Position numbers and translations under genes: made by a program. Shown one piece after another: positions 6,745 through 39,420 of a stretch of DNA of 51,354 bases. How positions within the stretch are numbered: the stretch's first letter is position 1; each line of letters opens with the position of its first letter. Where the stretch lies: positions 1 to 51,354 of the IMG/VR virus record IMGVR_UViG_3300048114_000266; one strand, written 5' to 3'. Source of the DNA: a virus. The notes below the pieces were generated by a model that was not told where the DNA came from, ran no database searches, and saw nothing but the letters and a program-made list of their open reading frames with translations.

Positions 6745-8505
6745 TTAGTTGTCACCGCCGACCATGCGGGTGTTTGCGGACGCCGAATGTGCCGCTCCCG
6801 ACGCTTCGCTGTCGGCATTTTCGTCGTCGGTGACGCCGTCGTAGTCGACGCTAATGTCGTCGCCGTCACCGGACTTTTCGACTTGTTCGCGAAGGGCCTT
6901 TCGCGCGACTTCGGCGTCGTCGTGGCCCGTAATGTCCTTGACGATACGGTCGCCAAGTTGGTCCGGTTCCATCTTGTCCGCGTCGGGGTGTTCTTCGACG
7001 TCCGACCGAAGGTCGTCGACGTCGGACTTTAGGGCGCGCGCCCAATCCGGGGCGGCGTCCCAATCGACGCTGTCGGTGTCCGTCGACTTCGACACGTCGT
7101 CGCCGTCGCCACCGTCGGCGTCAGCGTCGGACTTGTCGACGTCGTCGGCGTCGCTGTCAGTATCGTCGTCGGACATGCTAATCCCGCCGTCGTCGCTACC
7201 GTCTTCGTCGTCTTCGCCCGACCCGTCTTCTTGGGTTTCGTCGCCGGTCCCTTCGCCCCCAGCGTCGCCGCCAAGGAATACGGAAAGGCCGGTGACTTGG
7301 CCTTCTTCGATACCTCCCGATTCGATAAGGGAGCGCACGAAGTCTTCGACAGTAGCGTCGCGCGACACCGACCCGTCGTCGACCATGCTACTGAATTCGG
7401 TAAGCATGGCCGACGCGGTGTCGGCGTTCATTTCCTGTTTGGTAGTCGTTTCCGTTCCGTCAGTCCCCGAATCACCGGGGTCGTCTTCGTCACTCATGCT
7501 AATGGTGTCGTAGTCGCACGAATCGGGTGTTTGGGCGGCAAGGTCGGCGACGTCGACGTCGACGACTTGCGCGGTCGCTTCTAACACTTCGACGTCGGGG
7601 CATTCGACCGAATCAGCGACGAAGTCGCGAATGTCTGATTCGTCGCGACCCGCTACTTCGGCAATTTCCCCGACCATGTCGGCGGCTTCGTCTTCCGATT
7701 CGGCAAGTTCCCGAATCTTGTCTTCGACGAATTCGCCGACGCCCTTCGACACCGATTCGTCCGCGTCGTCGGTTTCGCTCTTACTCATTTGCCCGTGCGA
7801 TTTGCCAAGAAGACTATCGACGTCGACGGGCTTCGCCCCGCCGTAAATCGACAGTCCGTTTAGGTCGCCCGACACGACGCGGTCCCACGTTTCGTCGTTA
7901 AACCGAATGCCCAAGACCCACGTACCTTCGGGGTATTCGCGGCTTTCCGTGCCGTCGGGCATTTCGAACGTCGTGTCTTGTTTTAGCGTCCAAGATTCGA
8001 CCGGCGTCCCCTTGCCGTCACGAAGGTCGTGGTCGCTGTCGACCTTGCGGTATTCGGAAAGGTATCGGTGGGCCGCGTCTTCGATAGCGGGCTTCGGAAT
8101 GACGTCGCCCTGTTTGTCGGCTTCTTTCGGGATTAGCACCGGGGCAAAGGCGATTTGCTTGACGTCGTCACCGCTGTCGTCGCGGTCTTTCTGAACGTAA
8201 AGCGTTGCCTCCGATTGCCAACGGTGCGACGACCCCGAAGGGTCGTCGGCGTCTTTCGCGATTACCCATTCGCTATCTTGTGCGGGCGTGTCTACCGGCG
8301 ACACGAATTCGACTTCTAAGCCGGTAAGGACTTCTTGGGCTTGCGGGTCGCTAAGGGCTTCTTTGCCTTCTTCTTCTAACCAGTTACAGAATTCTTCCGG
8401 GTCGTCTATGCCGGGTTCGTCCGACATAGCGGCTACGCACCCGTCAAAGGTGTCGAAGTCGTAGCCGGGGAAGGGTTTTCCGACTGGTTTTTGATTGTCG
8501 CCCAT
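6745..8505 (-). CDS. Scaffold or prohead-protease-like acidic protein
   Basis: ORF track, 586 aa, ATG at 8505; long low-complexity Asp/Ser/Gly tracts; lies between portal and capsid genes. Confidence 0.5.
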   Translation of the reverse strand: MGDNQKPVGKPFPGYDFDTFDGCVAAMSDEPGIDDPEEFCNWLEEEGKEALSDPQAQEVLTGLEVEFVSPVDTPAQDSEWVIAKDADDPSGSSHRWQSEATLYVQKDRDDSGDDVKQIAFAPVLIPKEADKQGDVIPKPAIEDAAHRYLSEYRKVDSDHDLRDGKGTPVESWTLKQDTTFEMPDGTESREYPEGTWVLGIRFNDETWDRVVSGDLNGLSIYGGAKPVDVDSLLGKSHGQMSKSETDDADESVSKGVGEFVEDKIRELAESEDEAADMVGEIAEVAGRDESDIRDFVADSVECPDVEVLEATAQVVDVDVADLAAQTPDSCDYDTISMSDEDDPGDSGTDGTETTTKQEMNADTASAMLTEFSSMVDDGSVSRDATVEDFVRSLIESGGIEEGQVTGLSVFLGGDAGGEGTGDETQEDGSGEDDEDGSDDGGISMSDDDTDSDADDVDKSDADADGGDGDDVSKSTDTDSVDWDAAPDWARALKSDVDDLRSDVEEHPDADKMEPDQLGDRIVKDITGHDDAEVARKALREQVEKSGDGDDISVDYDGVTDDENADSEASGAAHSASANTRMVGGDN

Positions 8506-8780: not shown

Positions 8781-11528
8781 TTACGTCAAGTGATTAACGT
8801 GGGTGTCGTAGCGGTCTATCCAATCGTATAGCGTGTTTGGCGACACCTTGCCCCGTTCTTCGACGTCGTATTCGTCGGCTTCGACTAACCGCCGATTGAA
8901 TTCCCGAAGCGCGCCCCGCTTCGAACCCGATTCTTCTAAGCATTCACGTAGGAGGTTCGGAACGTGATTGCCCAAGACGTCTTCTAATTCCTGCATACGC
9001 CGCGTGGGGTTCGTCGCCTTCGCGACGCGCTTGACGACGTCCGCATACGTTTCGTCGTGGGCCTTCGACGCTTCGACGGGTTCGACGTTCGCGTCGCCGG
9101 CTTCGAATTGGTCCGCGAAGTCGTCGGCCGACGGCACGTCGACGTCCGGCGCGTCGTCGCCGGTCCCCGGAACCCGCACGAACGTATGCCGTTCGTTCGG
9201 GTGAATCGTATGCTTGCGGAACGATAGGTTATCGAAGTATTCGTCGTGAACGTTCCGTTCAGCGTCGATTAGTTCGGGGAGCGTGACCGGCGTCCCGCCG
9301 TGGTCCGGGTTCGTCATGTCTTTCAGGTCTTCGCACGCGTCGGTCGTGCGACTGTCGTCGGGACCGACCCATTTGAACTTCGCGTCGTCAAGCCCACGGT
9401 CGCGATAGCCTTCTTCGCGCGCTTCGTTCAGTACCTTAGCCGATTCGGTGCGCGCTATCGTTTCCAAGTCGTCGGGGTCCGCACGGGGGAGCGCGTCGCT
9501 AAGATTGTCGACGATTGAATCTAACGACCACCCTTGCGGGTTCGTCAGCGCGTCGCTAAGCGTGTCTTGAATCGTAGTAGCCACACGTCCCGGCACCGAC
9601 GCGAAGTCGCTGAACACGGCCCCACGGTCGACGACGTCTTCTAACGCGGACATGACGAAGTCGGGGACGTCTTCGTCTTCGGCCCACGCCCGCTTTTCTA
9701 TGTCGTCAAGCGACTTCGGGGCTATCTGTCGGTCGAACGCCCGCAACAGCGTCGTGTCTAACTTCGCGACTTCGTCTTTCGTCAGTCGGTCGCGGTCGCC
9801 GTCCCCGTCACTCCCGTTTCCCGAATCACCCTTCGTCGTGGGGCCTTGTTCGACGGCGTCGAAGTCTATGTCGTCGAAGTTAACGCCGTCGTATTTGTCG
9901 ATAAGGTCTTGCACCGTTCCGGGGCCGACGCCGAAGACTTCCGCATGTGGGTCGTGGGTTTCCGGCGGGTTCGGCGGGTAAACGACGTCGCCGCCGTCAG
10001 TATTCCGCGCCCGTTTCACGTCGAAGACGACGCCGCCTTCGTCGGCAAGGTCGTCTAAGAAGCGTTCGAAGTCGCCCGATTCGTGGTCTACCGCTTCCCC
10101 GCCGACGTGATAGGTAAGCGGGACGCCACCCTTCGAACGGTCGACGCGAATGTCGGCTTCGTCGGGGTCGTCGACCGACCCGAATAGGCCACCGCCGCCA
10201 CCGCCACCGCCGACGTCGCCTTCTTCGATTGGTCCGTCTTCGACCACTAACTTGCCGTCGCGGAAGGTGACGTCGCGGCCGGCGTTGGCCATTTCCTTCC
10301 CGGCGGTCGCTTGCGCTTCGATAACGTCGGCGCGCGTCTGACGTTCGTCGGCGGTTTGCTCCCGTTCGAATTCGAAGGCAAGGTCGTCGCTAATTTCGGG
10401 CCACACGTATGCCCGGTTAAGGGCTTCTTCTAATTGGCGAAGGGTGACGCGGAAACCGCGCTGTTTGTATGCTCCTTGCTGGGATTCGTCGGTGGCGCGA
10501 TTGACGTTTTCGAAGTCGAAACCCGCATACGACGGGTTAACCTTGAAGACCGACCCCAAGACCGTGACCCAATACTTCGAACGGTCAAGAATTTGTAGTT
10601 CCTGATAATTGTGATTTATCGCTTCGAAGTTTACGGGCGTCTTCGAATAGCCGACGCGGTGGCGTTCCCCTTCGTCCAAGCGCATGGATTCGACGAAGGT
10701 TTCCCAATCTTCGTCGTTCGGTAGTCCGCCGTAATCGTCTAAGGCTTCCGGGGAAAGGACACCGGGCGGGCCGCCTTGCATTAGGTCTAACCGCTCCTTT
10801 TCTGCAAGTTCTTCTAACAATTCGACTTCGTTTTGGGCCTTTTCTAAGGGGCCTTGCCCATAAAATCGGTCGGGGCGCGACGACCATTCGACCCACACAA
10901 TATCGTTAACGTCGAATTCGTCGGTCTTCTTCCCCTTGCTTTGCGACACTTGCACGAAGCCTTCGGTAATCCCGTGCCGGTCGACTTGCTTGAATAGCGA
11001 CGCGCTGTCGACCGGGACAAGTTCGGCGACTTCGTCACTATCTTCGTAGTAGTGCTTGACAAGCGTCGCGTCGCCCAATTCCAACAGTACCCGCGTCGTC
11101 GCTTCAAGCATGTCGCGGAACGACGCTTGCGCGGGCGGCAATTGCCGCATGTGCCTTTCGACCTTCGCTAAGGCTTCGTCGGAAATGTCGGCGTCTTCGT
11201 CGCGGGGTTTAATCGACCAATTCGCGGCGGCGACGTCTTGCGATAGCGTGTCGATATAGGCTTGCACGACGGCGTTCGCGGATATGTCGCGCAAGAAGAC
11301 GGGGTCGTAGGGCTTCGTCTTGGCGTTACCCTGAACGGCGTCGCGAACGTCGTCGTTTACGTTCACGCGCCGGTTAATATCACCTCCCTTTTCCGCTGTT
11401 TCCGGGGAATTGTACCGCTTGCGGCGTCGTGACCGGACCCGCTGACGGCGTTCGCGACCGCTACGGGCGTCGCCGCCGTCCGCGAAGGGTGACGTAATCC
11501 CCTTGACAAATTTACTAAGGCGCGACAT
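8781..11528 (-). CDS. Portal protein fused to a MuF/SPP1-gp7-like head morphogenesis domain
   Basis: ORF track, 915 aa, ATG at 11528. C-terminal half carries IARTESAKV, WVGPDDSRTTDACEDL and HPNERHTF; a Gly8 tract (around 10186-10215) separates the halves. Confidence 0.6.
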   Translation of the reverse strand: MSRLSKFVKGITSPFADGGDARSGRERRQRVRSRRRKRYNSPETAEKGGDINRRVNVNDDVRDAVQGNAKTKPYDPVFLRDISANAVVQAYIDTLSQDVAAANWSIKPRDEDADISDEALAKVERHMRQLPPAQASFRDMLEATTRVLLELGDATLVKHYYEDSDEVAELVPVDSASLFKQVDRHGITEGFVQVSQSKGKKTDEFDVNDIVWVEWSSRPDRFYGQGPLEKAQNEVELLEELAEKERLDLMQGGPPGVLSPEALDDYGGLPNDEDWETFVESMRLDEGERHRVGYSKTPVNFEAINHNYQELQILDRSKYWVTVLGSVFKVNPSYAGFDFENVNRATDESQQGAYKQRGFRVTLRQLEEALNRAYVWPEISDDLAFEFEREQTADERQTRADVIEAQATAGKEMANAGRDVTFRDGKLVVEDGPIEEGDVGGGGGGGGLFGSVDDPDEADIRVDRSKGGVPLTYHVGGEAVDHESGDFERFLDDLADEGGVVFDVKRARNTDGGDVVYPPNPPETHDPHAEVFGVGPGTVQDLIDKYDGVNFDDIDFDAVEQGPTTKGDSGNGSDGDGDRDRLTKDEVAKLDTTLLRAFDRQIAPKSLDDIEKRAWAEDEDVPDFVMSALEDVVDRGAVFSDFASVPGRVATTIQDTLSDALTNPQGWSLDSIVDNLSDALPRADPDDLETIARTESAKVLNEAREEGYRDRGLDDAKFKWVGPDDSRTTDACEDLKDMTNPDHGGTPVTLPELIDAERNVHDEYFDNLSFRKHTIHPNERHTFVRVPGTGDDAPDVDVPSADDFADQFEAGDANVEPVEASKAHDETYADVVKRVAKATNPTRRMQELEDVLGNHVPNLLRECLEESGSKRGALREFNRRLVEADEYDVEERGKVSPNTLYDWIDRYDTHVNHLT

Positions 11529-12600: not shown

Positions 12601-12900
12601 TCACGTCTGACAGTCGGCACAAATCTTGTCGTGATTCGCGTGCCGTTTGGCCGTCGGGAGTAAGCACCGCTTACACCGGATTACCGTAGGTTGCCCACCT
12701 TCGAAGACGTCGTCGCCGAATCGAAGTAACATTTCGGCGTGGTCTTGGCAGATATACGCCCGGTGGCCCGCCGTTCGGAACACGAACGTCACGGCTTCGT
12801 TCCCACACACGGCGTCGGTCGGGCCGTCAGCCCCGACGGGAGGTTCGCCGCATGTCGAATCAATCGCGTCGGTATCGACCCCGTAGTCGTCGCTTCCCAT
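12601..12900 (-). CDS. Small zinc-finger protein
   Basis: ORF track, 99 aa, several Cys pairs (CGEP, CGNE, CQDH, CKRC, CADC). Confidence 0.45.
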   Translation of the reverse strand: MGSDDYGVDTDAIDSTCGEPPVGADGPTDAVCGNEAVTFVFRTAGHRAYICQDHAEMLLRFGDDVFEGGQPTVIRCKRCLLPTAKRHANHDKICADCQT

Positions 12901-12942: not shown

Positions 12943-13194
12943 TTAGTCGACGTCGAACGCGACGTCTACCGAATCGCACCCGTGGCATAGGCCGCCGTTA
13001 ACCCGTTCGTTTACGGCCAAGTAGAAGGCCGGCCGCGTCGTCGGAACCTGAATCGGGCCGTCGCATTCGCCACACGAAAGCGCGTCTTCGCTGACGGTGA
13101 CGACTTCCGGGCCGACGCTGACGTCGAATTCGCACCCGTAGGCAAGGGCTACCGCAAGCCCGCCCGAATCGAATAGGTCGTCGACGGCCGTCAT
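12943..13194 (-). CDS. Small Cys-containing protein
   Basis: Internal ATG at 13194 of ORF track 12943..13419 (the N-terminal part is Arg-rich and likely spurious); start overlaps the upstream stop; contains CGEC and CHGC. Confidence 0.4.
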   Translation of the reverse strand: MTAVDDLFDSGGLAVALAYGCEFDVSVGPEVVTVSEDALSCGECDGPIQVPTTRPAFYLAVNERVNGGLCHGCDSVDVAFDVD

Positions 13195-16020: not shown

Positions 16021-16075
16021 GGGTTCGCACCTACTACCCCCTAACTGCCATACGTACTTAAGCCTGTCGGCGTTA
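16021..16075 (-). promoter_or_regulatory. Promoter-leader cassette
   Basis: Gene-strand gccgacagg-CTTAAGTA-cgtatggcagttagggggtagtaggtgcgaaccc-ATG. Confidence 0.6.
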
Positions 16076-16768: not shown

Positions 16769-18244
16769 CTATGCCTTGTCGACGTGCGACGACGTCGACG
16801 ACCCCGAAGACGACGACCGGCGGCTTTCCGTATAGATAGCGTACCGAAGCGCGTCGGCCGCGTGGTCGTCGACGTCGCTACCGCCGACGTCTTCTTCGGT
16901 GTAGCCAAGCAATTCCTTCCGCGTTTCTTCGCACCGTTCAGCGACCAACAGCCCCGGCCGACCGTCGGCGTCTTCCCGAAGTCGATACCGGACTTCGTCA
17001 ATCCCGGCGTCGACTGACTTGTCGGCCTTGCCCGCTTTCCACCCGCGCGACCGCATTTTCTGAATGTCGCCGGGTTCGTGTTCGGAATGGATTCGGCCGC
17101 TTGGCTTGTCTGAAAGCCAATATTCGTCGTGTCGCGGCCCGCCGATTATGTCTTCGACGTGCGTCCCCGAACGGTAAAATTCGTCTACGACGATATATTG
17201 CCCGGCGTGGGTCTTCGCTATTTCAAGCATGACGCGGGGGTCGTCCCACCCGGCGTCGTAGCCATACATGCGCCACGACCCGCCGATTGCCGTATCGTAT
17301 TCGGGGATTGTCCCGTCGGATTCGACGTCGACGACGTGACTATGCCGGCGGAAGTCCGAATACACACGGCCTTCGTCGGCTTCGAATGACCCGTGTAGTG
17401 CTTGGTTTTCCCTCCCCGTTCCGCCGTGAATCCGCCGGATTCGCGCCCGGTCGTCTTCCGTTAGGAATGGGTTATTATCGGTCGACGCGGTGATTAACTT
17501 CGTCCGAATGTTCAGCGTATTTCCGTCGGCGGGGTCGACACCTTGTTCTAAAATGTCCCATGCGTCGTTAAACCCGTTCCCGGTCGTCGTGATTAGGATA
17601 CAGCGCGGGCCGGCGGGCTTGTAGTCTAAGCGTTCGCCTATCGTCTTCCGAACGCCGTTCAGGTCGTCGTAATATGCGGCTTCGTCAAGCCACGCGAATG
17701 AGAATTTGCCACCGTCGTAGCGGTTCGGCTTGTCGGCCGACGCCAAGATAATGACCGACCCGTTTATCAGCGTGATTACGCCGTCTTGTTTGCTGAACGA
17801 CCGGACGATTGGGGAGTTTTCCGGGTCGCCGTCGCCCAAGAATGGGTCTAAATTCTCCCCCGGAAGTTCTTCGAAAAGGACGGGGTACGTCGTCTTTTTC
17901 GATTCGGCGTAGGTCTTCCCCATAGCCAAGACGCGCGCCGGGGCGAAGTCGTTCGCCAAAGCGACTTCGATACAGGTTCGCGCCCCGGTGACTGACTTCC
18001 CCGAACGGTAGCCGGCGACTATGCCGATAATGTCGAAGTCCCCGGAATAGACGGCCGTCCGCGCTTCCCGCTGGGGTTTCCAAAACGCCCACGTAATATC
18101 TATGTCAGTCCCGTCGACGTCGACGACCGCGCCTTCGCGCCGTAGAAGTTCGACGTCTTCGTCGGATAGGTCGGCCGCGCCCGGCGCGAATATCGGCGTG
18201 CCGTCGGGCGCTGTTAGCCGCGTCGGTTCGGAAGTCGTCGACAT
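16769..18244 (-). CDS. terL: Terminase large subunit
   Basis: ORF track, 491 aa; Walker A GYRSGKS, Walker B-like WLDEAAYY, C-terminal acidic nuclease-like region ending DHAADALRYA. Confidence 0.8.
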   Translation of the reverse strand: MSTTSEPTRLTAPDGTPIFAPGAADLSDEDVELLRREGAVVDVDGTDIDITWAFWKPQREARTAVYSGDFDIIGIVAGYRSGKSVTGARTCIEVALANDFAPARVLAMGKTYAESKKTTYPVLFEELPGENLDPFLGDGDPENSPIVRSFSKQDGVITLINGSVIILASADKPNRYDGGKFSFAWLDEAAYYDDLNGVRKTIGERLDYKPAGPRCILITTTGNGFNDAWDILEQGVDPADGNTLNIRTKLITASTDNNPFLTEDDRARIRRIHGGTGRENQALHGSFEADEGRVYSDFRRHSHVVDVESDGTIPEYDTAIGGSWRMYGYDAGWDDPRVMLEIAKTHAGQYIVVDEFYRSGTHVEDIIGGPRHDEYWLSDKPSGRIHSEHEPGDIQKMRSRGWKAGKADKSVDAGIDEVRYRLREDADGRPGLLVAERCEETRKELLGYTEEDVGGSDVDDHAADALRYAIYTESRRSSSSGSSTSSHVDKA

Positions 18245-19607: not shown

Positions 19608-19664
19608 GGGTTCGCACCTACTACCCACTAACGGGGCTACGGTAATAAGTGTGTCGCTGTTGGC
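19608..19664 (-). promoter_or_regulatory. Promoter-leader cassette
   Basis: Gene-strand cagcgacacaCTTATTAccgtagccccgttagtgggtagtaggtgcgaaccc-ATG. Confidence 0.6.
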
Positions 19665-19907: not shown

Positions 19908-20131
19908 TAGTTTCGGGCCGTCAGTTTGACGCGGTCGGCACTATCGTCGGGGACAGCGCCGTCGGGCACGACGTAGACTTCGCCCGTCTTTTCCAAGTAG
20001 TCGAACGCTTCTTCGACGTCAGCGTCGTCGTAGTCGGCCGCGACTTGGGCCTTGACGTCGTCGACCGGCCGCCCCTTTGGGCCGCCGCCGGCAATCGCGT
20101 CTTTCAGCGCGGCAAGGGCGTCGCGGTTCAT
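19907..20131 (-). CDS. Small hypothetical acidic protein
   Basis: ORF track, 74 aa; ATGA overlap with the upstream gene. Confidence 0.45.
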   Translation of the reverse strand: MNRDALAALKDAIAGGGPKGRPVDDVKAQVAADYDDADVEEAFDYLEKTGEVYVVPDGAVPDDSADRVKLTARN

Positions 20132-22706: not shown

Positions 22707-22765
22707 AAGGGTTCGCACCTACTACCCACTAACGGCCATACGTACTTAAACCTGTCGCCGGTACA
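22707..22765 (-). promoter_or_regulatory. Promoter-leader cassette
   Basis: Gene-strand ggcgacagg-TTTAAGTA-cgtatggccgttagtgggtagtaggtgcgaaccctt-ATG. Confidence 0.6.
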
Positions 22766-23002
22766 CTACCCGTCGGCTTCGTCGGCGGCTTCGACAAGGG
22801 TGCGCGCTTCGGCAATCTTGTCGTCGACGCGCCCTTTGTGACTTCGAACGGTCCCGACAGCGACGCCAAGCGCGTTCGCGACGTGGGTTTCGGTCGCCCC
22901 AATTTCATACATGGCCACGAAGACGAACGCTTGCCGTTGCGATAGCGTCGTGTTTGATTCTATTACGTCGACGCGGTCGGTCAAGTCGTCGACGTCAGTC
23001 AT
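22766..23002 (-). CDS. Small HTH regulator (sigma-70 region-4-like helix-turn-helix)
   Basis: Internal ATG at 23002 of ORF track 22766..23272, overlapping the upstream stop as ATGA; contains LSQRQAFVFVAMYEIGATETHVANALGVAVGTVRSHKGR. Confidence 0.5.
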   Translation of the reverse strand: MTDVDDLTDRVDVIESNTTLSQRQAFVFVAMYEIGATETHVANALGVAVGTVRSHKGRVDDKIAEARTLVEAADEADG

Positions 23003-24039: not shown

Positions 24040-25233
24040 TCAGTCGAAGATTTGGTGCGTGTTCACGGCCAAGACCTTGCCGTCGTCGCGGTCGGGAAGG
24101 TCGACCCACGCGGGGGCGTAGTCTTCGGCGGTCGAACGGTCGCACACGCCGACGGCCTTTTCTTCGAAGTGAACGCCGTCGCCGGGGACGTCACCGAAGA
24201 CGACGTCGCCGTCGGCTTTCTCCCCGTCGGCCGCCCGGACGTCGATATTCGTGAAGTCGGTCGTGATTGCGACAGCGACGCACACGGGCACGTCGTCGGC
24301 GGCTTCCCACGCGGCGGCGATTGCGTAGGGGTCGAAGGACACGTCGGTCGGCTTGAACACGCCCGTCGGGTGGCGGCGGGCGAAGTCGACTTCGTCGCTG
24401 TCGTCGTCAGCGTCTTCGAACTTGGCAAGCATGTCGCGACCGACGCGGTCGACCGTGTCCGAATCGTCAGCGAAGTCGAACATGTGGCCGTGAATTTCGA
24501 CCGATTCGACGGTGCCGGTGTCGGGGTCGACGACGAAAGCACCGTGGCGACCGTTCGCGACCGTGCGAAGGTCGGCCCGCTCCCGAAGGACGTCAAGCGC
24601 GTCGCGAACGTCGTCGACGACGTCGTAATGTTCGGCGACGATACGGTCGGGTTCGAACCATTCCGCAAGGCCGGTCGCGAAGTCGAAGTCGGCCCCGTCG
24701 TCGCGCGTCGACACGAACCGGATAACGTGACGGTCGTCGTCGTTCATGGGTTCGTTCACCGCAAGGGCGAACGGGTCCGTGACGTCGGCGGCGGCGTCGT
24801 CAAGGTTGCGGCGGGCGCGTTCGTGGGCCGGCTTGTCAGCGTCGCCGTCGTCGGCGTCGGCGACTTCGACGACCGTGTCTTCCGGGTCGCCCTTGCGCGT
24901 GTGTTGGGTGACGTAGTCGCGACGCTTGTTCGACTTCGCCGCGCCGACCGTGATTGCGTCGGGGGATTTGTCGGACGCCGCGACGAAGAAGTATAGCGTT
25001 TGGTCGGTGTCGTCGTCGCTGACGTAGTGGCCACGAAGGGCGACTTCGGCCGAAGCGTTCCCTTGGCCGTGCCCGTTCACGTAATCGGTCGACACGACGT
25101 CGCCTTCGACGACGCGGTCGGTCTTGGTCGTGTATCCGCCCGTCAGCGACACGCGAAGGGTGTCGCCTTCTTCGACGCTGTCGGCAAGTTCCGCGAACGT
25201 TACGAAGTCGTCGGCTTCGGTGGTTTCGGTCAT
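24040..25233 (-). CDS. Hypothetical acidic protein
   Basis: ATG at 25233 within ORF track 24040..25245; begins MTETTEADDF; preceded by the cassette. Confidence 0.6.
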   Translation of the reverse strand: MTETTEADDFVTFAELADSVEEGDTLRVSLTGGYTTKTDRVVEGDVVSTDYVNGHGQGNASAEVALRGHYVSDDDTDQTLYFFVAASDKSPDAITVGAAKSNKRRDYVTQHTRKGDPEDTVVEVADADDGDADKPAHERARRNLDDAAADVTDPFALAVNEPMNDDDRHVIRFVSTRDDGADFDFATGLAEWFEPDRIVAEHYDVVDDVRDALDVLRERADLRTVANGRHGAFVVDPDTGTVESVEIHGHMFDFADDSDTVDRVGRDMLAKFEDADDDSDEVDFARRHPTGVFKPTDVSFDPYAIAAAWEAADDVPVCVAVAITTDFTNIDVRAADGEKADGDVVFGDVPGDGVHFEEKAVGVCDRSTAEDYAPAWVDLPDRDDGKVLAVNTHQIFD

Positions 25234-25296
25234 GGTGGTTCGCACCTACTACCCACTAACGGCCATACGTACTTAAACCTGTCGCCGGTACACTAC
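25234..25296 (-). promoter_or_regulatory. Promoter-leader cassette
   Basis: Plus-strand sequence 25234-25296 is near-identical to 22707-22768. Confidence 0.6.
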
Positions 25297-25408
25297 CCAC
25301 GCCCCAATTCCGGCCCGATTTGTGCGCGAACGTGCCCACCCGAATCGAAAACGCTGGGGCGACGTTCCGCGCTTGTTCACGACTATGCACCAATCGCGGC
25401 GTAGGAGG

Positions 25409-25567
25409 TTAGGGGCGCGCGCCACACGACCGACAGACGTCGACGGGTACGACGCAAGACGGCGCGGCGTGGGGTTCGAAACTGACGTCGTCGACGCTGA
25501 CGACGTCGCCGTTCCGTAGTTCGAACGCCGTCACGACGTCACCGCCACATTCGGGGCACGGCGTCAT
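25409..25567 (-). CDS. Mini zinc-ribbon protein
   Basis: Internal ATG at 25567 of ORF track 25409..25873; MTPCPECGG ... CRSCG. Confidence 0.4.
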   Translation of the reverse strand: MTPCPECGGDVVTAFELRNGDVVSVDDVSFEPHAAPSCVVPVDVCRSCGARP

Positions 25568-25866
25568 GCGAAGCCGGCGAAGGTGACGACCGTGCCGACG
25601 AAGACGACGAACGCGACCACGCCCGCGATTGCTCCCCCGCCGACGGCAATTGCGGCGGACATGACGACGGCGGGAAGGTCTAATTCCTGAATGAAACAGT
25701 AGCGTAGATACGCGGGTATGCCTTCGCGGTGGGTCGCGTCGGGCTTCAGACGGTGGCGATAGTCGACCACATGCACGAAGACGAACGTCGCGACGAATAG
25801 GAGCGTGCCGAACGCCGCGCCTATCTTCGCCGCCCCGACGACGGTCGCGGGGAGCGCGCCCGTCAT
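25564..25866 (-). CDS. Small membrane protein
   Basis: Internal ATG at 25866 of ORF track 25564..26136; hydrophobic helices; ATGA overlap with the next gene. Confidence 0.45.
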   Translation of the reverse strand: MTGALPATVVGAAKIGAAFGTLLFVATFVFVHVVDYRHRLKPDATHREGIPAYLRYCFIQELDLPAVVMSAAIAVGGGAIAGVVAFVVFVGTVVTFAGFA

Positions 25867-26105
25867 TCGCCACCCCACGACACCGCGACGACGTCGACGT
25901 CTGAATACAGGTCGCCGTCTTCGCCTTGCAGTTTTAGAATTTTGTTCGGTATCGCTTCCCATGACGGATAATAGCCGACCGACCCGTCGTCGAAGGTGAC
26001 TTCGTAGCCCCACACGACCGGCCATTCGAAGTCGTGAACGACGTCGCCCGGCCACGCGTCGTCGGGTGCATGGTGGCCGTGCGCCGTCGGGAGCGCGCCC
26101 GTCAT
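25863..26105 (-). CDS. Small hypothetical protein
   Basis: ORF track, 80 aa; shares its first codons (MTGALP) and about 25 nt of upstream sequence with the 25866 gene. Confidence 0.45.
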   Translation of the reverse strand: MTGALPTAHGHHAPDDAWPGDVVHDFEWPVVWGYEVTFDDGSVGYYPSWEAIPNKILKLQGEDGDLYSDVDVVAVSWGGE

Positions 26106-26254
26106 TCGTCGCCACCGTCTTCGGCCATTTCTTCAAGTATTTCGAACCATTCCGCCCACCTTTTGACTTCCCAACATACCGGACAATACGGCTTCGGGTC
26201 GTATGTCCGTCGGATTATCGCCCCGGCGTGCCCGCATTCGACTTCGACCGTCAT
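26102..26254 (-). CDS. Mini zinc-ribbon protein
   Basis: Internal ATG at 26254 of ORF track 26102..26299; MTVEVECGH ... CPVC; ends DGGDE. Confidence 0.4.
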   Translation of the reverse strand: MTVEVECGHAGAIIRRTYDPKPYCPVCWEVKRWAEWFEILEEMAEDGGDE

Positions 26255-26376
26255 TCGTCTTCGCCCCCGTCGTGGTCGGGGTCTTCGACCCACCCGCAAC
26301 TACCGCAATAGATATACGACGGGTCGTTCGACGCGCGTATCGCATTCACCGCGCCACATTCGGGGCACGACGTCAT
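26251..26376 (-). CDS. Mini zinc-ribbon protein (41 aa; below the ORF-track size cut-off)
   Basis: Hand translation MTSCPECGAVNAIRASNDPSYIYCGSCGWVEDPDHDGGEDE; start and stop both overlap neighbours as ATGA. Confidence 0.4.
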   Translation of the reverse strand: MTSCPECGAVNAIRASNDPSYIYCGSCGWVEDPDHDGGEDE

Positions 26377-27224
26377 TTGTCTTCGCCCCCGTCGTCGTCG
26401 CTGTCGCCGTCAGCGTCCGCGCTGTCGGCGTCGTCGACGTCGTCGGGAAGGTCGACACCGACCGACGTTATATCGACGTTCACGGTCGCGCCTTCGCCTT
26501 CGACGCTGACGTCGTGGTCGCCTTTGACGTTCACGTCTTGGCCTTCGCTAATCCGCTTGTATGTCTGAATCAGGTTCGCGACGCGGGCTTCTTTCCGTTC
26601 GACGGCTTCGTCGCCGAAGTCGACCCACGACTTGCCGGGGACCGGGTCAAGGTCGCCCCGGTAGTTGCACGGTTCCAAGACCTTCGGCTTGACCCGAATT
26701 TCGCCGTCGCACGTCCCGCCGGGTGGCGTTTTCTGTCGGTACTTCTTGCCACACTTCGGGCACTTGTAGATACTGACTTGTTCGACGCCGGGCGTCTTGT
26801 CGACGGCGCGCGCCAAGCGCATGTATTCGAAGCCTATCATGCTTTCCAGCATTTCGGCCATTTCTTCGACGCCGATACGCTCCCCGTCGGCCGTTTCGAC
26901 AAGGGCTTCGAATTCTTCGACGTCGTCGTCGTTCATGCGCTTACTGTAAAGGAGGTGTCGGGCGTTCCCGTTTTTCCACCCTTCCGGCGCACCGCCGGCC
27001 CCGCCGTGTTTCGAACATATCCCTGTATCGCGGTCGGTTCCCCACCCGGCGCGTAGCGTGCAATATGGAATATCTTCGCGCTTCCGACCGTTATTCGCTG
27101 TCGCGTCGGTCTTCGGATAGCCACAAATCGGATACCCGTTTTCGGGGTGAACCGGCACGCCGTCGTCGTTCGTCGGTACGTCGTCGTGAACGCCTTGCCA
27201 TACGCGGTCGGTGTCGCTTGCCAT
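26373..27224 (-). CDS. Hypothetical Cys-containing protein
   Basis: ORF track, 283 aa; CGYP ... CTLRAGWGTDRDTGICSKHGG and KCPKCGKK motifs; acidic tail. Confidence 0.55.
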   Translation of the reverse strand: MASDTDRVWQGVHDDVPTNDDGVPVHPENGYPICGYPKTDATANNGRKREDIPYCTLRAGWGTDRDTGICSKHGGAGGAPEGWKNGNARHLLYSKRMNDDDVEEFEALVETADGERIGVEEMAEMLESMIGFEYMRLARAVDKTPGVEQVSIYKCPKCGKKYRQKTPPGGTCDGEIRVKPKVLEPCNYRGDLDPVPGKSWVDFGDEAVERKEARVANLIQTYKRISEGQDVNVKGDHDVSVEGEGATVNVDITSVGVDLPDDVDDADSADADGDSDDDGGEDK

Positions 27225-27309: not shown

Positions 27310-27684
27310 TTAGGCGTCGACGTCGGGGTCGATAGCGTCAGCGACAGCGTCGCGCACCTTGTCGACAGTCGCTTCGTTCCACGACGCGGGGAAGACGACG
27401 GTCGCGTCGGCGACGTCATGCACGGGGAGCGATTCGGCGGCGTCGCGGTCGCCGGCCGATTGGCGCGGGCCGACGCCGATAGCCGACCGGAAGCCGTCGA
27501 CGTCCGCGACGTTTCGAAGTTCGTGTCGGGCGTAGTGTAGCGCGTCGGGTTCGACTGACAGCCCGACAGCGACGAAGGCGGCGTCGGTCTTGTCGACCGC
27601 GTCTTGTAGTTCGCGACCGAAGGCTTCCCATACGGTCGGGTCGTCGGCGTTACGTAGGTCGTCGGCGAAGTCGTGGGCGTTCAT
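27310..27684 (-). CDS. Hypothetical acidic protein
   Basis: ATG at 27684 within ORF track 27310..27696; preceded by the cassette. Confidence 0.55.
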   Translation of the reverse strand: MNAHDFADDLRNADDPTVWEAFGRELQDAVDKTDAAFVAVGLSVEPDALHYARHELRNVADVDGFRSAIGVGPRQSAGDRDAAESLPVHDVADATVVFPASWNEATVDKVRDAVADAIDPDVDA

Positions 27685-27743
27685 GGTGGGTCGCACCTAC
27701 TACCCACTAACGGGGCCACGGTAATAAAGGTGTCGGCGTTACA
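27685..27743 (-). promoter_or_regulatory. Promoter-leader cassette
   Basis: Gene-strand acgccgacacc-TTTATTA-ccgtggccccgttagtgggtagtaggtgcgacccacc-ATG. Confidence 0.6.
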
Positions 27744-28013
27744 CTACACGTCGGCGTCGGGTACGCGGAAGCGTTCGGTTCCGTCGTCGGTTTCGAATTC
27801 CACGACGCCGGCGGGAATGTCGAATTCCCCGGTAGCGTGTGCGGAATACGGTAGTTCCGTCTGATTCGATTCGGCGGGCACGGTGAACCCGAACCCACGG
27901 GTGCGATAGTCGACGGTGACGTCTTCGAAGCGTTCGGGTAAGACGACCTTCCCGCGTTCGCCACGTTCGACCGTCGGTAATTCGTCGCTGTCGTCGGCGG
28001 TAGCGTCGGACAT
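27744..28013 (-). CDS. Hypothetical protein
   Basis: Internal ATG at 28013 of ORF track 27744..28040. Confidence 0.5.
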   Translation of the reverse strand: MSDATADDSDELPTVERGERGKVVLPERFEDVTVDYRTRGFGFTVPAESNQTELPYSAHATGEFDIPAGVVEFETDDGTERFRVPDADV

Positions 28014-31310: not shown

Positions 31311-31469
31311 CTACGTGACGGCGCGCACGCTGTCGTCGTTCCGAACCAAGTCGCGAACACAAGGAGCGCACACGTCGACGGGTCGCGGGTCGCGGTCGTC
31401 GTCGACGTAATAGATTCTATGCGGGGCCGTTTCGACGCTGTCGCGGTCGCATTCGTCGCACGTTCCCAT
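31311..31469 (-). CDS. Mini zinc-ribbon protein
   Basis: Internal ATG at 31469 of Arg-rich ORF track 31311..31946; MGTCDECDRD ... CAPC. Confidence 0.35.
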   Translation of the reverse strand: MGTCDECDRDSVETAPHRIYYVDDDRDPRPVDVCAPCVRDLVRNDDSVRAVT

Positions 31470-31953: not shown

Positions 31954-32196
31954 TTAGCGACGGCGTCGGCGGCGGCCGCCGGTCAAGTCGTCGGTCTTGT
32001 CGGGCTGATTCGCCGGTTCGGTGTCGGCCGGGCCGACGTCGTCTTCGGCGATTACGTCGCCCGTGACCGGGCACGAATACGTAATCGTCGCGTCGTCTTC
32101 GTCGTGTTCTTCGACCGGGCATTCGTCGCTTCCGCACGTCCCGCTGATTGATTGGATAACGCCGCGCGCATTCCGTTCGACTGTATGGCTTGGCAT
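31954..32196 (-). CDS. Small Cys-containing protein
   Basis: ORF track, 80 aa. Confidence 0.45.
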   Translation of the reverse strand: MPSHTVERNARGVIQSISGTCGSDECPVEEHDEDDATITYSCPVTGDVIAEDDVGPADTEPANQPDKTDDLTGGRRRRRR

Positions 32197-32198: not shown

Positions 32199-33821
32199 CT
32201 ATCTGTTGGTTTCGAACCGTGACGCCGGCCGTTGCGACCCGGTGACGTGGTCGATGACCTTCGTCGACACGGTCGGCATTTTGCCGTCGCGTTCGTACCG
32301 CTCCCGTGACGCCACGACGTCGACCTTGTCGGTCGGCGCGGGGCCGACGTCGACCGCTACGACGTGCGTCCCGCCGTGGCTACGGTAGTGGTCGACCCCG
32401 ACGACTTCGCCTTCGAAGACCGTGCCGTTATCGTCGGCCCATACGGTCGCGCTGTCGCCGACTTCGGCCGCGTAGACGTTCGCCGCTATGCCTTCCGAAT
32501 CCATCGTCGTGGCGTCGAAGACCGTCTTCGCGCCGTCGGCGGTCGGGTGGGCCATGCGCGGATTGTTCGGCGCGCGTAGCGTCAGCGTGTCGGTCGCGTC
32601 GGGTTCCGTCGTGATTGGTTCGTACCGGGAGCAATCCGGCGCGTGGTCGTATGGGGCCGGCGCGTACCGGCCGCAAAACGCACACTTGTCGACGTCGCCG
32701 CCGGCCGCGTCGGGGCCGCCGTCGAAGCGGTCGTCGCGATAGTCGACGCCGCCGTCGGTCGCTGTCGGGCGGTCGATACGGTCGTGTGCGAAGACGTCGT
32801 CGGGGTCGACGGTCGTGCCGTCGATATGGTAGCGCGCCCATTCGGAAGACCGTGCGCCGTCGTCGTCTTCGTGGTCGTCGAACCACCCTTGCGTAACAAG
32901 AATGACGTGTTCGTCGGTGTCTTCGAAGTAGTGAATGAATACTTCGGCGGGGACGGTGTAATAGGGCTGAACCGCCGCGTTCCCTCCCGAATAGGCGCGG
33001 AAGTCGATACGGAACGGTTCGCCCGGTTCGGGCGATTCGCCGCCGTCGGTCGCGGCTTCGGGGCTATCAGTTTCACTTTCACCGCGCGGGGTGTCGTGGT
33101 CTTCGTCGCTGTCGACGAACGCTTCGAAGACGTCGGCCGCGCTGTCGCGAAGGTCGTCGCGCACCATGTGGTCGCGGTCGTCTTCGTCGGCGTGGTAGAC
33201 GTCGGCGCGAAGGACACGGCCAAGCCGGGACATTTGACCCTTCGGCCCGCGCGTCGATATGACCGGCGACCCGTGGGCGGGCACGCCGAAGCGGTGAATG
33301 CCGACGGGTTCGCCGTCCGACGTTTCGTCGCCCGTGTCGAACGTGACTTCGAATAACTCCCCGTTCGCGTAGTTGTATTTGACCGACGTGACGGTGCCCC
33401 GAATCGTCTTCCGATTGCCCTTCGCGCGGGTCGACATGTGTTCGACTTCGATAGTGTCGCCGCGTGCGACGTCGCCGACGTCGAACGCAAGTTCGCCGTT
33501 ATCCGCGAAGTCGCCTTCGACGTCCGGTTCGACGTCGCGAACGACGCGCATGTCGACGCCCGTCGTGAACCGGCCGCCCGAATCCGTCGACTTGACGAAG
33601 CCGCCGTCGGTAATCAGGAACGAATACGACCGGGCGTTCGCGCGGTCTAACGACGCTTCGACGACGGTGCCGTCGTAGTCGCCGTAATCGACGCCGACCT
33701 TGTCGACCGTTAGATTCGACTTCGGGAGGAAAGACGCGCCGGACACGCTGACTTCGTCGCCGACTTCGATTTGTTCGACAGACGTCACGGCTTCGGTCGT
33801 GGTTTCGGTGGGTTCGGTCAT
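32199..33821 (-). CDS. Large hypothetical protein
   Basis: ORF track, 540 aa; begins MTEPTETTTE on the cassette. Confidence 0.6.
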   Translation of the reverse strand: MTEPTETTTEAVTSVEQIEVGDEVSVSGASFLPKSNLTVDKVGVDYGDYDGTVVEASLDRANARSYSFLITDGGFVKSTDSGGRFTTGVDMRVVRDVEPDVEGDFADNGELAFDVGDVARGDTIEVEHMSTRAKGNRKTIRGTVTSVKYNYANGELFEVTFDTGDETSDGEPVGIHRFGVPAHGSPVISTRGPKGQMSRLGRVLRADVYHADEDDRDHMVRDDLRDSAADVFEAFVDSDEDHDTPRGESETDSPEAATDGGESPEPGEPFRIDFRAYSGGNAAVQPYYTVPAEVFIHYFEDTDEHVILVTQGWFDDHEDDDGARSSEWARYHIDGTTVDPDDVFAHDRIDRPTATDGGVDYRDDRFDGGPDAAGGDVDKCAFCGRYAPAPYDHAPDCSRYEPITTEPDATDTLTLRAPNNPRMAHPTADGAKTVFDATTMDSEGIAANVYAAEVGDSATVWADDNGTVFEGEVVGVDHYRSHGGTHVVAVDVGPAPTDKVDVVASRERYERDGKMPTVSTKVIDHVTGSQRPASRFETNR

Positions 33822-35438: not shown

Positions 35439-35521
35439 TGCGACGGGCCGGATTCGAACCGGCGAACCCCTACGGGACACGGTCTTAAGCCGTGCGCGTT
35501 TGGCCACTTTGCTACCGTCGC
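35439..35521 (-). tRNA. tRNA-Leu, anticodon UAA
   Basis: Hand fold of GCGACGGTAGCAAAGTGGCCAAACGCGCACGGCTTAAGACCGTGTCCCGTAGGGGTTCGCCGGTTCGAATCCGGCCCGTCGCA: 7-bp acceptor stem, anticodon stem CACGG/CCGTG with loop CTTAAGA, long variable arm, T-arm GCCGG-TTCGAAT-CCGGC. The D-stem is weak. Confidence 0.7.
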
Positions 35522-35599: not shown

Positions 35600-35716
35600 T
35601 AGTCGCGGGTGGATTCGAACCACCGTCGTAGGCTTACTTTCGGGCACGCCCCCTTCGACCTTCGTTCAGCGTGCCCGTCCAAAGGCCCACATGATTGGCC
35701 ACTACACCACGCGACT
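35600..35716 (-). tRNA. tRNA-Gln, anticodon UUG, with a 44-nt intron
   Basis: Exon 1 AGTCGCGTGGTGTAGTGGCCAATCATGTGGGCCTTTGG and exon 2 AGCCTACGACGGTGGTTCGAATCCACCCGCGACTA give a perfect acceptor stem, anticodon stem TGGGC/GCCTA and T-arm GGTGG-TTCGAAT-CCACC. The insert sits at the canonical 37/38 position. Confidence 0.7.
35635..35678 (-). other. tRNA intron
   Basis: Contains a 9-bp inverted repeat CGGGCACGC ... GCGTGCCCG, compatible with a splicing helix. Confidence 0.6.
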
Positions 35717-37840: not shown

Positions 37841-39358
37841 CTATTCGTCGTCGTAGTCGACGCCGGGGAGGTTCGTTAGGTTCCACCCGTTCGACGACAT
37901 GCCCGTCCCGGCCGAATGCGTGTCGTCGCACGACGGGCACGAAAGACCCAGCGACCGACTGACTTCCGTGCGGCGGCCGGCCGAATAGTGGGACGTGCGT
38001 AGCATGGGAACCTTGTCAGCGCCACACGTCGGGCACGTCGACAGCGCGTCGAAGACGTCGCGACCCTTGTCCGTGGCGACCCACGCCGCGTCGGGGTCGT
38101 CGACGTCGGTATCGCGGTCGTCGGCGCGGGCAATCAGCCCCGTGTCTTCGGCGTCGCGTAGCACCGTGCGGAAGTAGCGGAACTTGTGGGCGAACCCCTT
38201 CGGGCGGCGTAGTCCCGTGCCGGGCTTTCCCGTGTCGCCGCGCCCCGTCGAAACGCGACCTTGTTCGCCGGTCTTGACCGGGCCGACGTCTTCGGGGTCG
38301 ACTTCGTCGTCGCTGTCGAACATGCCGCCGTCGGTCGCGGCGTCGACGCCCGCCACGTAGTTGCCCCAGTAAATCACGTCGCGAAGAAGCGACGTGATAT
38401 GATTCGCGTCGAAGGACTTGTGTTCAGACATGCGCGCTTCGACGTCGTCGGGAAGGTCGGCGTCGTCGACCGACCACACGGTCGCGCCTTCGCACGACGG
38501 GCACACGTCGCCGAAGTGTTCGTGCGTCTTCTTGGCCGGCGTTTCCCATTCGTCGCCGCAACGGGAGCATTCGAACGTGTCGACGTAGGCTTCGGCGGTC
38601 TTGTTCATGTCGTCGTCGTATTCCGGGCTGACGTGGGCCTTGTCGTTCACCGCGCCGACGTATTTCTCAAGCGCAAGCGTGCGAACGACGTTCGCGAACG
38701 TCGTCAAGTCGTCGTCTTCGTAGTCGTCGACCTTCGCTTCCCATTCGTCGACGTCTTCGAAGTCAGTCGACACGCCGTCGTCGGGAATAGTGGCGCGGTA
38801 GAAGGTCGGCGCGTCGGCGTCGGTCGGGTCGACGTCGTCGCGGTCGGTCATGCGGCGGCCGACGACGACTTCGAAGGGGCAATCGTCTTCCGGGCACGTA
38901 TGCCGCGCCGTGTGGTCGTCGTCATATTCGGCTTCGTGGCCGCCGTGAACGGGGCACGTCACGCGGCCGGCGAACGATAGCGATTCGACGGGCGCGTCGC
39001 GGTCGTAGGATTCGACCACCTTGTGAACGATTTGGCCATCTTCGACCGTCGTGTGCGTGTTCCGTTCGTGGCGGACCATGAACGTCGTGTCGCTGTCGCT
39101 GACGTGACGAAGGTAGTGGTCACGGTCGCCGTGTTCGTCGTCAAGCACCGCGTCGACGGTGACTTCGCCGCCGTCAGCGACGGCGTTCCGGGCGCGGAAT
39201 TCAGCGATTGCGGCTTCGGCGTTGGCCCGAAGCGTGTCGACGGCCGGGGCGTCGTCGGGGAGGTTCGCCGCGACGGGGGCGACTTCGTTAATGTAGGCCG
39301 CAAGGCGGGCGGTCGAAAACCGTTCGACGTCGACGTCGGCTTCGGTGGTTTCGGTCAT
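37841..39358 (-). CDS. Large hypothetical protein with several Cys pairs
   Basis: ATG at 39358 within ORF track 37841..39370; begins MTETTEADVDV; motifs CPVHGG, CSRCGDE, CPSCEG, CPTCGAD. Confidence 0.6.
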   Translation of the reverse strand: MTETTEADVDVERFSTARLAAYINEVAPVAANLPDDAPAVDTLRANAEAAIAEFRARNAVADGGEVTVDAVLDDEHGDRDHYLRHVSDSDTTFMVRHERNTHTTVEDGQIVHKVVESYDRDAPVESLSFAGRVTCPVHGGHEAEYDDDHTARHTCPEDDCPFEVVVGRRMTDRDDVDPTDADAPTFYRATIPDDGVSTDFEDVDEWEAKVDDYEDDDLTTFANVVRTLALEKYVGAVNDKAHVSPEYDDDMNKTAEAYVDTFECSRCGDEWETPAKKTHEHFGDVCPSCEGATVWSVDDADLPDDVEARMSEHKSFDANHITSLLRDVIYWGNYVAGVDAATDGGMFDSDDEVDPEDVGPVKTGEQGRVSTGRGDTGKPGTGLRRPKGFAHKFRYFRTVLRDAEDTGLIARADDRDTDVDDPDAAWVATDKGRDVFDALSTCPTCGADKVPMLRTSHYSAGRRTEVSRSLGLSCPSCDDTHSAGTGMSSNGWNLTNLPGVDYDDE

Positions 39359-39420
39359 AGTGGTTCGCACCTACTACCCACTAACAGGGCTACGGTAATA
39401 AAGGTGTCGGCGTTGCACCA
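39359..39420 (-). promoter_or_regulatory. Promoter-leader cassette
   Basis: Gene-strand cgccgacacc-TTTATTA-ccgtagccctgttagtgggtagtaggtgcgaaccact-ATG. Confidence 0.6.

Follow-up and report, generated by a model that had tools for sequence, protein, structure and literature searches.

A chain of overlapping minigenes in a haloarchaeal virus, and its peptide tails as the probable protein shadow of a translational restart signal

Positions 25409–26376 of the virus record IMGVR_UViG_3300048114_000266 (IMG/VR) hold five consecutive minus-strand genes of 41–100 codons, here called minigenes, in which each start overlaps the stop of the preceding gene and several products end in an acidic Gly-Gly tail, GG(D/E)E. 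We analysed this chain within the whole 51,354-nt record (positions 1 to 51,354; the window), which is an entire contig in both the JGI and Logan collections, has a GC content of 61%, and codes for strongly acidic proteins. It represents a tailed haloarchaeal virus, whose large terminase (TerL) is 41–44% identical to the TerL of the haloarchaeal viruses Humcor1, HSTV-1, BJ1, and HRTV-28. Relatives are denoted by L numbers; L014 (Logan ERR15142512) is a close one, 90% identical in g283, the gene in front of the chain. Selection is given as the ratio of nonsynonymous to synonymous change, pN/pS. The chain and the two genes before it are:

27310–27684, minus: g124, first gene behind a promoter cassette; 121/124 identical in L014, pN/pS 0.14
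26373–27224, minus: g283, 283 codons, Cys/His-rich conserved protein whose tail DDDGGEDK carries the G-run for A41
26251–26376, minus: A41, 41-aa CPxCG-type zinc ribbon (C4, C7, C24, C27), tail DGGEDE
26102–26254, minus: B50, 50-aa degenerate zinc ribbon (C7, H9, C24, C27), tail DGGDE
25863–26105, minus: C80, 80-aa acidic soluble protein, tail SWGGE
25564–25866, minus: D100, 100-aa membrane protein, hydrophobic tail FAGFA without a G-run
25409–25567, minus: E52, 52-aa CPxCG-type zinc ribbon (C4, C7, C45, C48), last of the chain

An earlier sequence-only reading had described five genes of 41–100 aa chained by ATGA overlaps, and the layout bears this out: all five junctions, g283/A41 included, are 4-nt ATGA overlaps on the minus strand, and the register is kept in L014. 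Such overlaps join 18 of the 65 co-directional neighbour pairs in the window, in consecutive runs of 2, 1, 5, 3, 2, 2, 1, and 2. Since the five-junction run is the longest instance of the genome's normal layout, the chain is an extreme case and not a separate kind of object. Four of its junctions carry a G-run, with predicted anti-Shine–Dalgarno (anti-SD) duplexes of −7.1 to −10.6 kcal/mol; D100/E52 has none, because the D100 tail is a membrane segment. The junction motif GGGGGCGAAGNCNNATGAC has four exact copies in the window against 0 expected from shuffles, and is also present in L014, L015, and L016. The four junctions are:

26372–26390, minus: g283/A41, GGGGGCGAAGACAAATGAC (G-run, spacer, ATGA), codons GGG GGC GAA GAC AAA TGA; anti-SD duplex −10.6 kcal/mol
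26250–26268, minus: A41/B50, GGGGGCGAAGACGAATGAC, codons GGG GGC GAA GAC GAA TGA; left B50 breakpoint against L014 and L031
26101–26116, minus: B50/C80, GGTGGCGACGAATGAC, codons GGT GGC GAC GAA TGA; right breakpoint of the B50 cassette
25862–25876, minus: C80/D100, GGGGTGGCGAATGAC, codons GGT GGC GAA TGA, preceded by TGG and hence GGGGTGG

Acidic GG(D/E)E-type tails had also been reported on several proteins in and outside the chain, and a listing of tails across the window agrees, with GGEDK, GGEDE, DGGDE, and WGGE in the chain and GVGGDE, DDGGEGE, LIGGEDA, and EMGGRE elsewhere. Their distribution follows gene spacing. In the window, G-runs at −18 to −6 occur in 18 of 36 gene pairs ≤ 10 nt apart, compared with 3 of 29 more distant pairs (p = 0.001), and GG-type tails in 13/36 and 2/29, respectively (p = 0.007). 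When the window and its relatives are taken together, the ATGA ends (n = 35) have G at 46–80% of positions −12 to −8, even at third codon positions, which normally favour C. Gly occupies residue −4 at 15/35 ATGA ends versus 13/120 uncoupled ends, and the ATGA ends are predicted to pair more strongly with the 16S 3′ end (Mann–Whitney p = 8e-5).

Codon choice within the tails separates selection on RNA from selection on protein. At the window's ATGA junctions, eight GG tails use GGG, GGT, or GGA for the first Gly and never GGC (0/8), against a GGC share of 54% among window Gly codons (P = 0.002), while the second Gly is the preferred GGC in 6/8. Because the first Gly avoids GGC and the second uses it, selection appears to act on the RNA rather than the peptide: GGNGG pairs with CCUCC, and peptide selection would not predict the pattern. 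Tails with one Gly (ESGVDE, HGADE, RGRYE, and AGVDA) retain GGGG or GGGT, and the 616-aa protein encoded elsewhere in the window has a perfect consensus, GGAGGTGACGAATGA, at 20128 (GGA GGT GAC GAA TGA), which encodes its GGDE end.

These observations bear on the view that GG(D/E)E is a functional C-terminal peptide, either an interaction or processing motif or, after trimming, a SAMP-like diglycine end. The tail does recur on many proteins, and GGDE is the commonest end in the g283 family and persists in L001 with no coupled gene behind it. Besides the codon pattern, what speaks against a peptide role is that the tails track coupling, that close relatives alter the peptide and retain G-run and ATGA, and that the carriers differ in size and fold, from a 41-aa zinc ribbon to the 616-aa protein and others. 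We consider a functional peptide very unlikely. The specific case of a SAMP-type ubiquitin-like diglycine tail was rejected, given that the GG is followed by one to three residues, the carriers are varied, and the codon constraint operates at the RNA level.

Comparison with L014 separates peptide and signal directly. From the window to L014, GGEDK becomes NGDEDE, GGEDE becomes GGEGE, and WGGE becomes WGDA, and G-run and ATGA are retained each time; at the C80/D100 junction, which reads GGGGTGACGCATGAC in L014, the change is from GGGGTGGCGAATGA to GGGGTGACGCATGA. The end of E52 is a natural experiment for a signal that follows coupling. In the window E52 ends in CGARP-TAA, with no G-run and nothing coupled behind; in L014 its last three codons are rewritten to give C-GWSA (GGGTGG..GTGA), and an HNH gene is coupled behind. 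This HNH endonuclease gene (L014 7747–8112) directly follows E52 there and is absent from the window. Across 18 loci with g283 orthologues, a gene starts within 2 nt in 12–13 of the 14 with a G-run tail and in 0 of the 4 without one (p = 0.0016–0.005).

The particular amino acids can be derived from the reading frame. The ATGA overlap fixes the frame, and therefore the signal is read as protein, GGN-GGN as Gly-Gly and GAN as Asp or Glu; framed in this way, the SD consensus GGAGGUGA would read Gly-Gly-Asp/Glu. The last codon is mostly GAA (Glu), because ATGA demands a final A and the virus almost never uses GAG. GAA makes up 50% of A-ending sense codons, and Glu is the final residue in 16/35 ATGA tails. 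The common MT start would likewise correspond to ATGAC. The Gly-Gly frame is probably favoured because GAG avoidance disfavours ..G GAG GTG and because, in the third frame, TGA would arise as a premature stop. On this reading, GG(D/E)E is the protein shadow of the restart signal, and neither a functional peptide nor a family signature.

The avoidance of GAG is part of a wider habit. Glu codons in the window are 97% GAA and 3% GAG, despite the 61% GC, because motif avoidance removes GAG; GAG/CTC stands at 0.11 of expectation and nearly always lies within GGAG. The whole window contains zero AGCT, CTAG, GATC, and CGAG/CTCG (93–203 expected of each), CAATG and CACTG are also at zero, and so are many 6-mer palindromes, including CCGCGG, CCCGGG, ACCGGT, CCATGG, and CACGTG. 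This looks like wholesale restriction-site avoidance.

Shared sequence is also found at the starts of genes. Two adjacent genes had been noted to share upstream sequence and the first codons MTGALP, and they do: C80 and D100 are identical at 23/25 nt around the ATG (−8 to +17). The first 25 nt of A41 and E52 agree at 24/25, against a mean of 10.5 matches (sd 2.5) over all 2556 start pairs in the window.

25850–25874, minus: D100 start cassette encoding MTGALP, a copy of the C80 start at 26089–26113
25543–25567, minus: E52 start (first 25 nt), matching the A41 start at 26352–26376 in 24/25 nt

An xLPT start is native to the C80 family, and D100 starts with MTPTLG or MTPMFG in L015 and L016, where C80 is absent; it follows that the neighbouring junction has overwritten the first six codons of D100. 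In a mirror case, L015 has MTPTL on both a 47-aa open reading frame (ORF) and its D100 homologue D100′. That ORF (L015 6395–6538, 47 codons, MTPTLSMPTL..RAGGDA), which is uncalled, spans an apparent gap before D100′ and contains the start-like string ATG(A)CGCCGACGCTA twice, with a further copy at the D100′ start. The idea that C80 is a frameshifted D100 copy was rejected, there being no DNA similarity past the 25-nt start. Concerted evolution of the A41 and E52 starts is hinted at by one site, TGC in both genes of the window and TGT in both genes of L014, which is too little to assert it. Shared 5′ ends are a genome-wide habit. F397 (24040–25233, minus) and the 505-aa gene g505 (37841–39358, minus) are identical over their first 25/25 nt (MTETTEAD) and have the upstream cassette in common, with no similarity found beyond start and cassette (BLASTP E = 0.34).

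We next consider whether starts and tails are instead inherited features of one duplicating family of small zinc ribbons, as the sequence-only reading proposed. Adjacent A41 and B50 are identical at 13/28 positions with the same knuckle spacing (pairwise E = 9e-4, a single comparison), hhalign aligns them over 27 columns at E = 0.0012, A41 and E52 have MT.CPECG and 24/25 nt in common, and shuffle z-scores reach 4.6–5.7. A profile–profile check, which had been suggested, gives a divided answer: the A41/B50 E-value is favourable, but its probability is only 19%, the A41/E52 alignment is confined to the first 9 residues (MT.CPECG), and B50/E52 gave no alignment. All-versus-all BLASTP of the 72 window proteins returned no zinc-ribbon pair at E < 0.05, and the zinc ribbons scattered elsewhere show no significant mutual similarity. 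C80 and D100 are unrelated to zinc ribbons and to one another, and identical tails or start cassettes recur on unrelated 616-aa, 236-aa, and 70-aa proteins, as with the 25/25 nt of F397 and g505. A single family thus mostly fails as an account of the array, and we regard it as unlikely. To judge from their sequences, A41 and B50 may be tandem paralogues, B50 perhaps having arisen from A41. The five genes belong to at least four lineages, the locus turns over small genes, many of them zinc ribbons, and tails and start cassettes track the ATGA junction rather than homology.

The zinc-ribbon assignments themselves were compared with the published definition of CPxCG-related proteins, in which a second pattern, [CH]x2-3[CH], lies 7–40 residues away (PMC2253796). 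Of the three CPxCG ribbons that had been placed in the chain, two stand: A41 has CPECG and CGSCG with knuckles 15 residues apart, and E52 has CPECG and CRSCG 36 apart. B50 drops out under the strict definition, having CPVCW and only a C7-x-H9 half-knuckle in place of the second pattern. Among the ribbons reported elsewhere, the 65-aa protein at 15444 conforms, those at 31311 and 12601 have two CxxC knuckles each and fall outside the strict definition, and the one at 31954, also outside it, is doubtful as a zinc ribbon. A41, E52, and the 15444 protein fit the class in motif, size range, and knuckle spacing and, like its published members, are unrelated beyond the knuckles; unlike those, they are virus-encoded and known from sequence alone (PMC2253796). 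CPxCG-related proteins form 8% of archaeal small proteins (PMC2253796), and an enrichment of zinc fingers in the window was rejected, as the strict qualifiers (3/20 small window proteins) are not above this baseline (p = 0.21). The four Cys of A41 and E52 are conserved in relatives, and the minigene products concerned are predicted to bind zinc.

The proteins at 12601–12900 (minus) and 12943–13194 (minus) are small and Cys-rich, lie beside the portal and head genes, and are 36–58% identical in relatives L001–L005. They are probably members of the morphogenesis module and not accessory minigenes.

Several lines of evidence concern whether the minigenes are genes at all. A codon model trained on long genes ranks the annotated frame of each of the five first among the six possible frames. 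Against L014, pN/pS is 0.21 for C80, 0.29 for D100, and 0.42 for E52; B50 differs from its copy in L031 at 12 sites, distributed 1, 3, and 8 by codon position (pN/pS 0.25). B50, C80, D100, and E52 are under purifying selection. The JGI pipeline calls A41, B50, C80, and E52. That the small ORFs are chance frames in GC-rich sequence, and untranslated, would accord with low codon-model scores for A41, B50, and E52 (0.035–0.083 per codon), with the lack of a Pfam match above cut-off, and with the missing pN/pS signal of A41. Against this stand the frame scores and pN/pS values just given, the conserved Cys ligands, the distant homologues of C80, and a stop–start register kept across relatives, and chance frames are an extremely improbable explanation.

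Pfam and PHROG gave no above-threshold assignment for the five minigenes or their neighbours, only sub-threshold zinc-ribbon matches; for A41, Zn_ribbon_3 and DUF7577 fall just under the cut-off. The JGI label of A41, "ribosomal protein S27AE", is almost certainly a false positive caused by the zinc ribbon. The C-terminal half of B50 is rich in Trp and Glu. C80 is a member of a separate small phage protein family (∼75–90 aa) with the motif WP..EWPV..GY..DGS.GYYPSW..IPN.IL; it has five small relatives (74–90 aa, 32–55% identity), some of non-halophilic origin, four at E 2e-20 to 4e-10 and one (P0082) at 2e-6. An AlphaFold2 model of this family was unusable (predicted local distance difference test score, pLDDT, 55).

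D100 has hydrophobic stretches at ∼9–36 and 61–100 and a conserved loop, YR.RL..DATHREG[IV]PAYLRY, and only four sequences of its family were found among 5.8 billion proteins (D100 itself and three relatives). A query of the five concatenated proteins came back empty, yet the single-family search of the same database found D100 itself, which makes the concatenated negative invalid. The g283 family has 75 homologues, many at loci with a small zinc-ribbon or small membrane protein directly behind. One source names g283 a C2H2 zinc-finger protein; it has no Pfam, PHROG, or Protein Data Bank (PDB) assignment, and a PDB profile search with its family gave nothing usable. Our best guess is that the minigene products are small regulators or host-interacting accessory factors that bind nucleic acids or proteins and serve host takeover or anti-defence, and that D100 and E52 form a membrane-associated pair.

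The order of genes behind g283 differs among relatives. It had been suggested to look for the same array in related viruses, and L014 keeps both the order and the register of A41 (37/41 identical), C80, D100, and E52, but its B50 slot differs. After the g283 orthologue (primes mark homologues of window genes), the relatives carry:

L014: A41′, an unrelated 34-aa gene, C80′, D100′, E52′, HNH
L015: 106-aa zinc protein, 86-aa sigma-70-region-4-like protein, uncalled 47-aa ORF, D100′, E52′, all ATGA-linked
L016: D100′ (53% identical), E52′ (60%)
L031: B50′, then the 99-aa zinc protein that directly follows g283 in L017
L020, L021, L029: other zinc-ribbon minigenes
L018, L019, L001, L028: 49–52 aa membrane protein

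Accessory minigenes, often zinc ribbons, have a hot spot directly behind g283, and D100 with E52 is a conserved core pair; in L015 and L016, E52 is 58–60% identical and adjoins D100. Identity between the window and L014 ends right past the ATGACG of the second gene and resumes right past the ATGAC of C80, B50 being exchanged for the unrelated 34-aa gene. In L031, a B50 copy (88% aa and 92% nt identity) sits behind a divergent g283; here the 92% identity is limited to B50 and its two junctions, and the neighbouring g283 types are only ∼50% identical. B50 acts like a mobile cassette that has passed into the L031 background. Other small genes recur similarly: the L021 zinc ribbon is found elsewhere in L018, L003, L017, and L004, the L015 86-aa gene matches window 22766–23002, and the L029 39-aa gene recurs in L020. 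Across the relatives, individual minigenes are gained, exchanged, or relocated, and the breaks fall at the ATGAC junction.

Whether the junction takes part in these exchanges is a separate matter, and its similarity may itself drive them. On this proposal, the SD-bearing AUGA junction (GGGGGCGA, 4–7 nt, AUGAC) would double as a portable recombination adaptor between unrelated minigenes, many of which, throughout this clade of haloarchaeal viruses, begin and end in almost identical junctions of 20 nt. Recombination or gene conversion from one junction to another could add, remove, exchange, or relocate single ORFs. If true, a captured ORF would join the coupled chain at once and in frame, the duplicated starts MTGALP, MTPTL, and MT.CPECG would be scars, and translation signals would be the basis of a gene-cassette system comparable to the PeSLs of T4 or to integron cassettes. 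We hold this as a doubtful, though serious, possibility. Breakpoints at gene borders are common in phage mosaics and are usually explained by random recombination and selection. ORF-precise swaps would accordingly need no special junction: illegitimate recombination would be random, selection would keep frames and coupling, and junctions would be alike only since each is selected separately for translation. Junction similarity is indeed largely explained by the SD motif, acidic codons, and ATGA, and few exchange events were observed. Harder to fit are the two B50 breakpoints, which in each of two independent comparisons lie a few nt from ATGAC, the near-identity of ∼20–24 nt of flank despite different upstream genes, and the start-region duplications (MTGALP, MTPTL) that flank insertions beside D100 in two lineages. 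Random recombination without an adaptor is a credible account, if one we would place somewhat short of even odds; the patterns fit junction-to-junction recombination or conversion and also random illegitimate recombination with selection.

Known systems offer partial parallels. PeSL (promoter early stem-loop) cassettes of T4-type phages consist of an early promoter and a terminator stem-loop, and recombination between them yields excised mini-circles (Arbiol et al. 2010, PMC2839356; Comeau et al. 2014, PMC4122927). As there, a variable region here has short conserved regulatory motifs bordering small non-essential ORFs, and where close relatives differ by an insertion, a deletion, or a replacement, the motif marks its limits (PMC2839356, PMC4122927). 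Unlike PeSLs, the motif here is a G-run plus ATGA of ∼20 nt, partly coding, with no promoter–terminator pair, the host is archaeal, and the pattern is known from sequence comparison (PMC2839356). The window's own promoter cassette does not flank the minigenes. Mosaicism and morons in tailed phages (lambdoid phages and mycobacteriophages) are similar in that single accessory genes are gained or lost between conserved neighbours with breakpoints at gene borders. Morons usually carry their own promoter and terminator; the minigenes, in contrast, have neither and plug into an existing coupled chain.

Upstream, a cassette of putative promoter and 5′ leader, reading ..GTAGTGTAACGGCGACACCTTTAT..GTTAGTGGGTAGTAGGTGCGAACC, 3–4 nt, ATG, is repeated in front of the leading genes of at least eight units; the alignment of eight copies spans ∼70 nt, and several copies extend into coding sequence (MTET...). 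Its core, TAGTAGGTGCGAACC, has seven matches in the window with 0–1 mismatch, and nine with ≤ 3 mismatches against 0.9 expected.

27685–27751, minus: promoter and 5′-leader cassette of g124, ..CGACACCTTTATTACC..GTTAGTGGGTAGTAGGTGCGACCC + 3 nt + ATG, the likely start of the unit that includes the chain
16022–16036, 19609–19623, 22710–22724, 25237–25251, 27688–27702, and 39362–39376, minus: cassette core copies
2726–2740, plus: cassette core copy
before 32199–33821: degenerate cassette copy
25348–25351, minus: T4 run ∼55 nt past the E52 stop, a candidate archaeal terminator

No cassette was found in front of g283, and the next one, for F397 at ∼25237–25300, comes after the T4 run. The unit would therefore comprise g124, g283, A41, B50, C80, D100, and E52, a likely polycistronic unit with the minigenes distal.

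Elsewhere, the window carries the head and tail genes of its type:

1618–2628, minus: tail tube gene
6745–8505, minus: head protease gene
8781–11528, minus: portal gene
16769–18244, minus: TerL gene

A tRNA-Leu(UAA) at 35439–35521 (minus) was detected by both ARAGORN and Rfam, and a second, 117-nt tRNA match at 35600–35716 (minus), possibly with an intron, by Rfam only; within the minigene region, Rfam found no RNA family. DNA and protein searches of a phage collection returned no relative of the region, the 616-aa protein, A41, or E52, and TerL alone matched. A genome scan with g283 for proviruses or a host found nothing, as did a metagenome scan with D100.

Taken jointly, we read the chain as coupled by termination–reinitiation, its tails as the shadow of the restart signal, and its minigenes as independent cassettes exchanged at the junctions, with a probability of roughly 0.7. 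A ribosome stopping at UGA would restart at the overlapping AUG (AUGA), minigene after minigene, and restart would be aided at four of the five junctions by an SD-like G-run (GGGGG or GGUGG, then GA) lying 3–9 nt upstream, in the last codons of the preceding gene.

Several points weigh against this reading. Co-transcription and actual reinitiation are deduced from gene layout, the pairing energies assume a canonical CCUCC-containing 16S 3′ end for the host, and the counts over g283 orthologues are not phylogenetically independent. The L001 orthologue keeps ..DDGGDE and ATGA with no credible ORF there and the next gene 85 nt away, and in L028 the tail is followed by TAG as the stop, with GTG at +2 as the next start. 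G-runs are missing from 6 of the 18 ATGA junctions in the window, D100/E52 among them, and the motif is therefore not required. Proteins of the g283 family end in exact GGDE in 21/72 cases, the commonest end, and have GG within the last six residues in 41/72; for the g283 protein alone, the GGDE tail may have a peptide role. For A41, only 5 differences from L014 are available, which leaves its pN/pS uninformative.

Coupling of this kind is established in haloarchaea, where ATGA pairs are coupled by termination–reinitiation and SD motifs serve mainly for reinitiation at such pairs rather than at leading genes; in reporter data the SD motif was not required, and dependence on it was variable (PMC6728339). 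The window resembles Haloferax volcanii and other prokaryotes in its co-directional 4-nt ATGA overlaps (Huber et al. 2019, PMC6728339; PMC10666635), and H. volcanii also in that the 3′ end of the preceding gene holds the SD motif, which some junctions lack (PMC6728339). It differs in being a viral five-junction chain of genes of 41–100 codons, read from sequence, and in holding the SD in one preferred frame that leaves a Gly-Gly-acidic tail (PMC6728339). Ordinary termination–reinitiation coupling is thus already known, and the modestly novel part is ORF-precise cassette turnover at coupling junctions.

For annotation, the finding exposes a trap: recurrent terminal "motifs" on small viral proteins may be shadows of RNA signals, unfit to define families, and the S27AE label on A41 is a similar artefact. 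The window offers a testable example in which an embedded SD, a fixed ATGA frame, and GAG avoidance together dictate a peptide tail. For halovirus evolution, it indicates that minigenes pass, one ORF at a time, among viruses that share only ∼50% identity in the genes next to them. Should the junction itself bring about the exchange, archaeal viruses would have a simple route to gain accessory genes and express them immediately.

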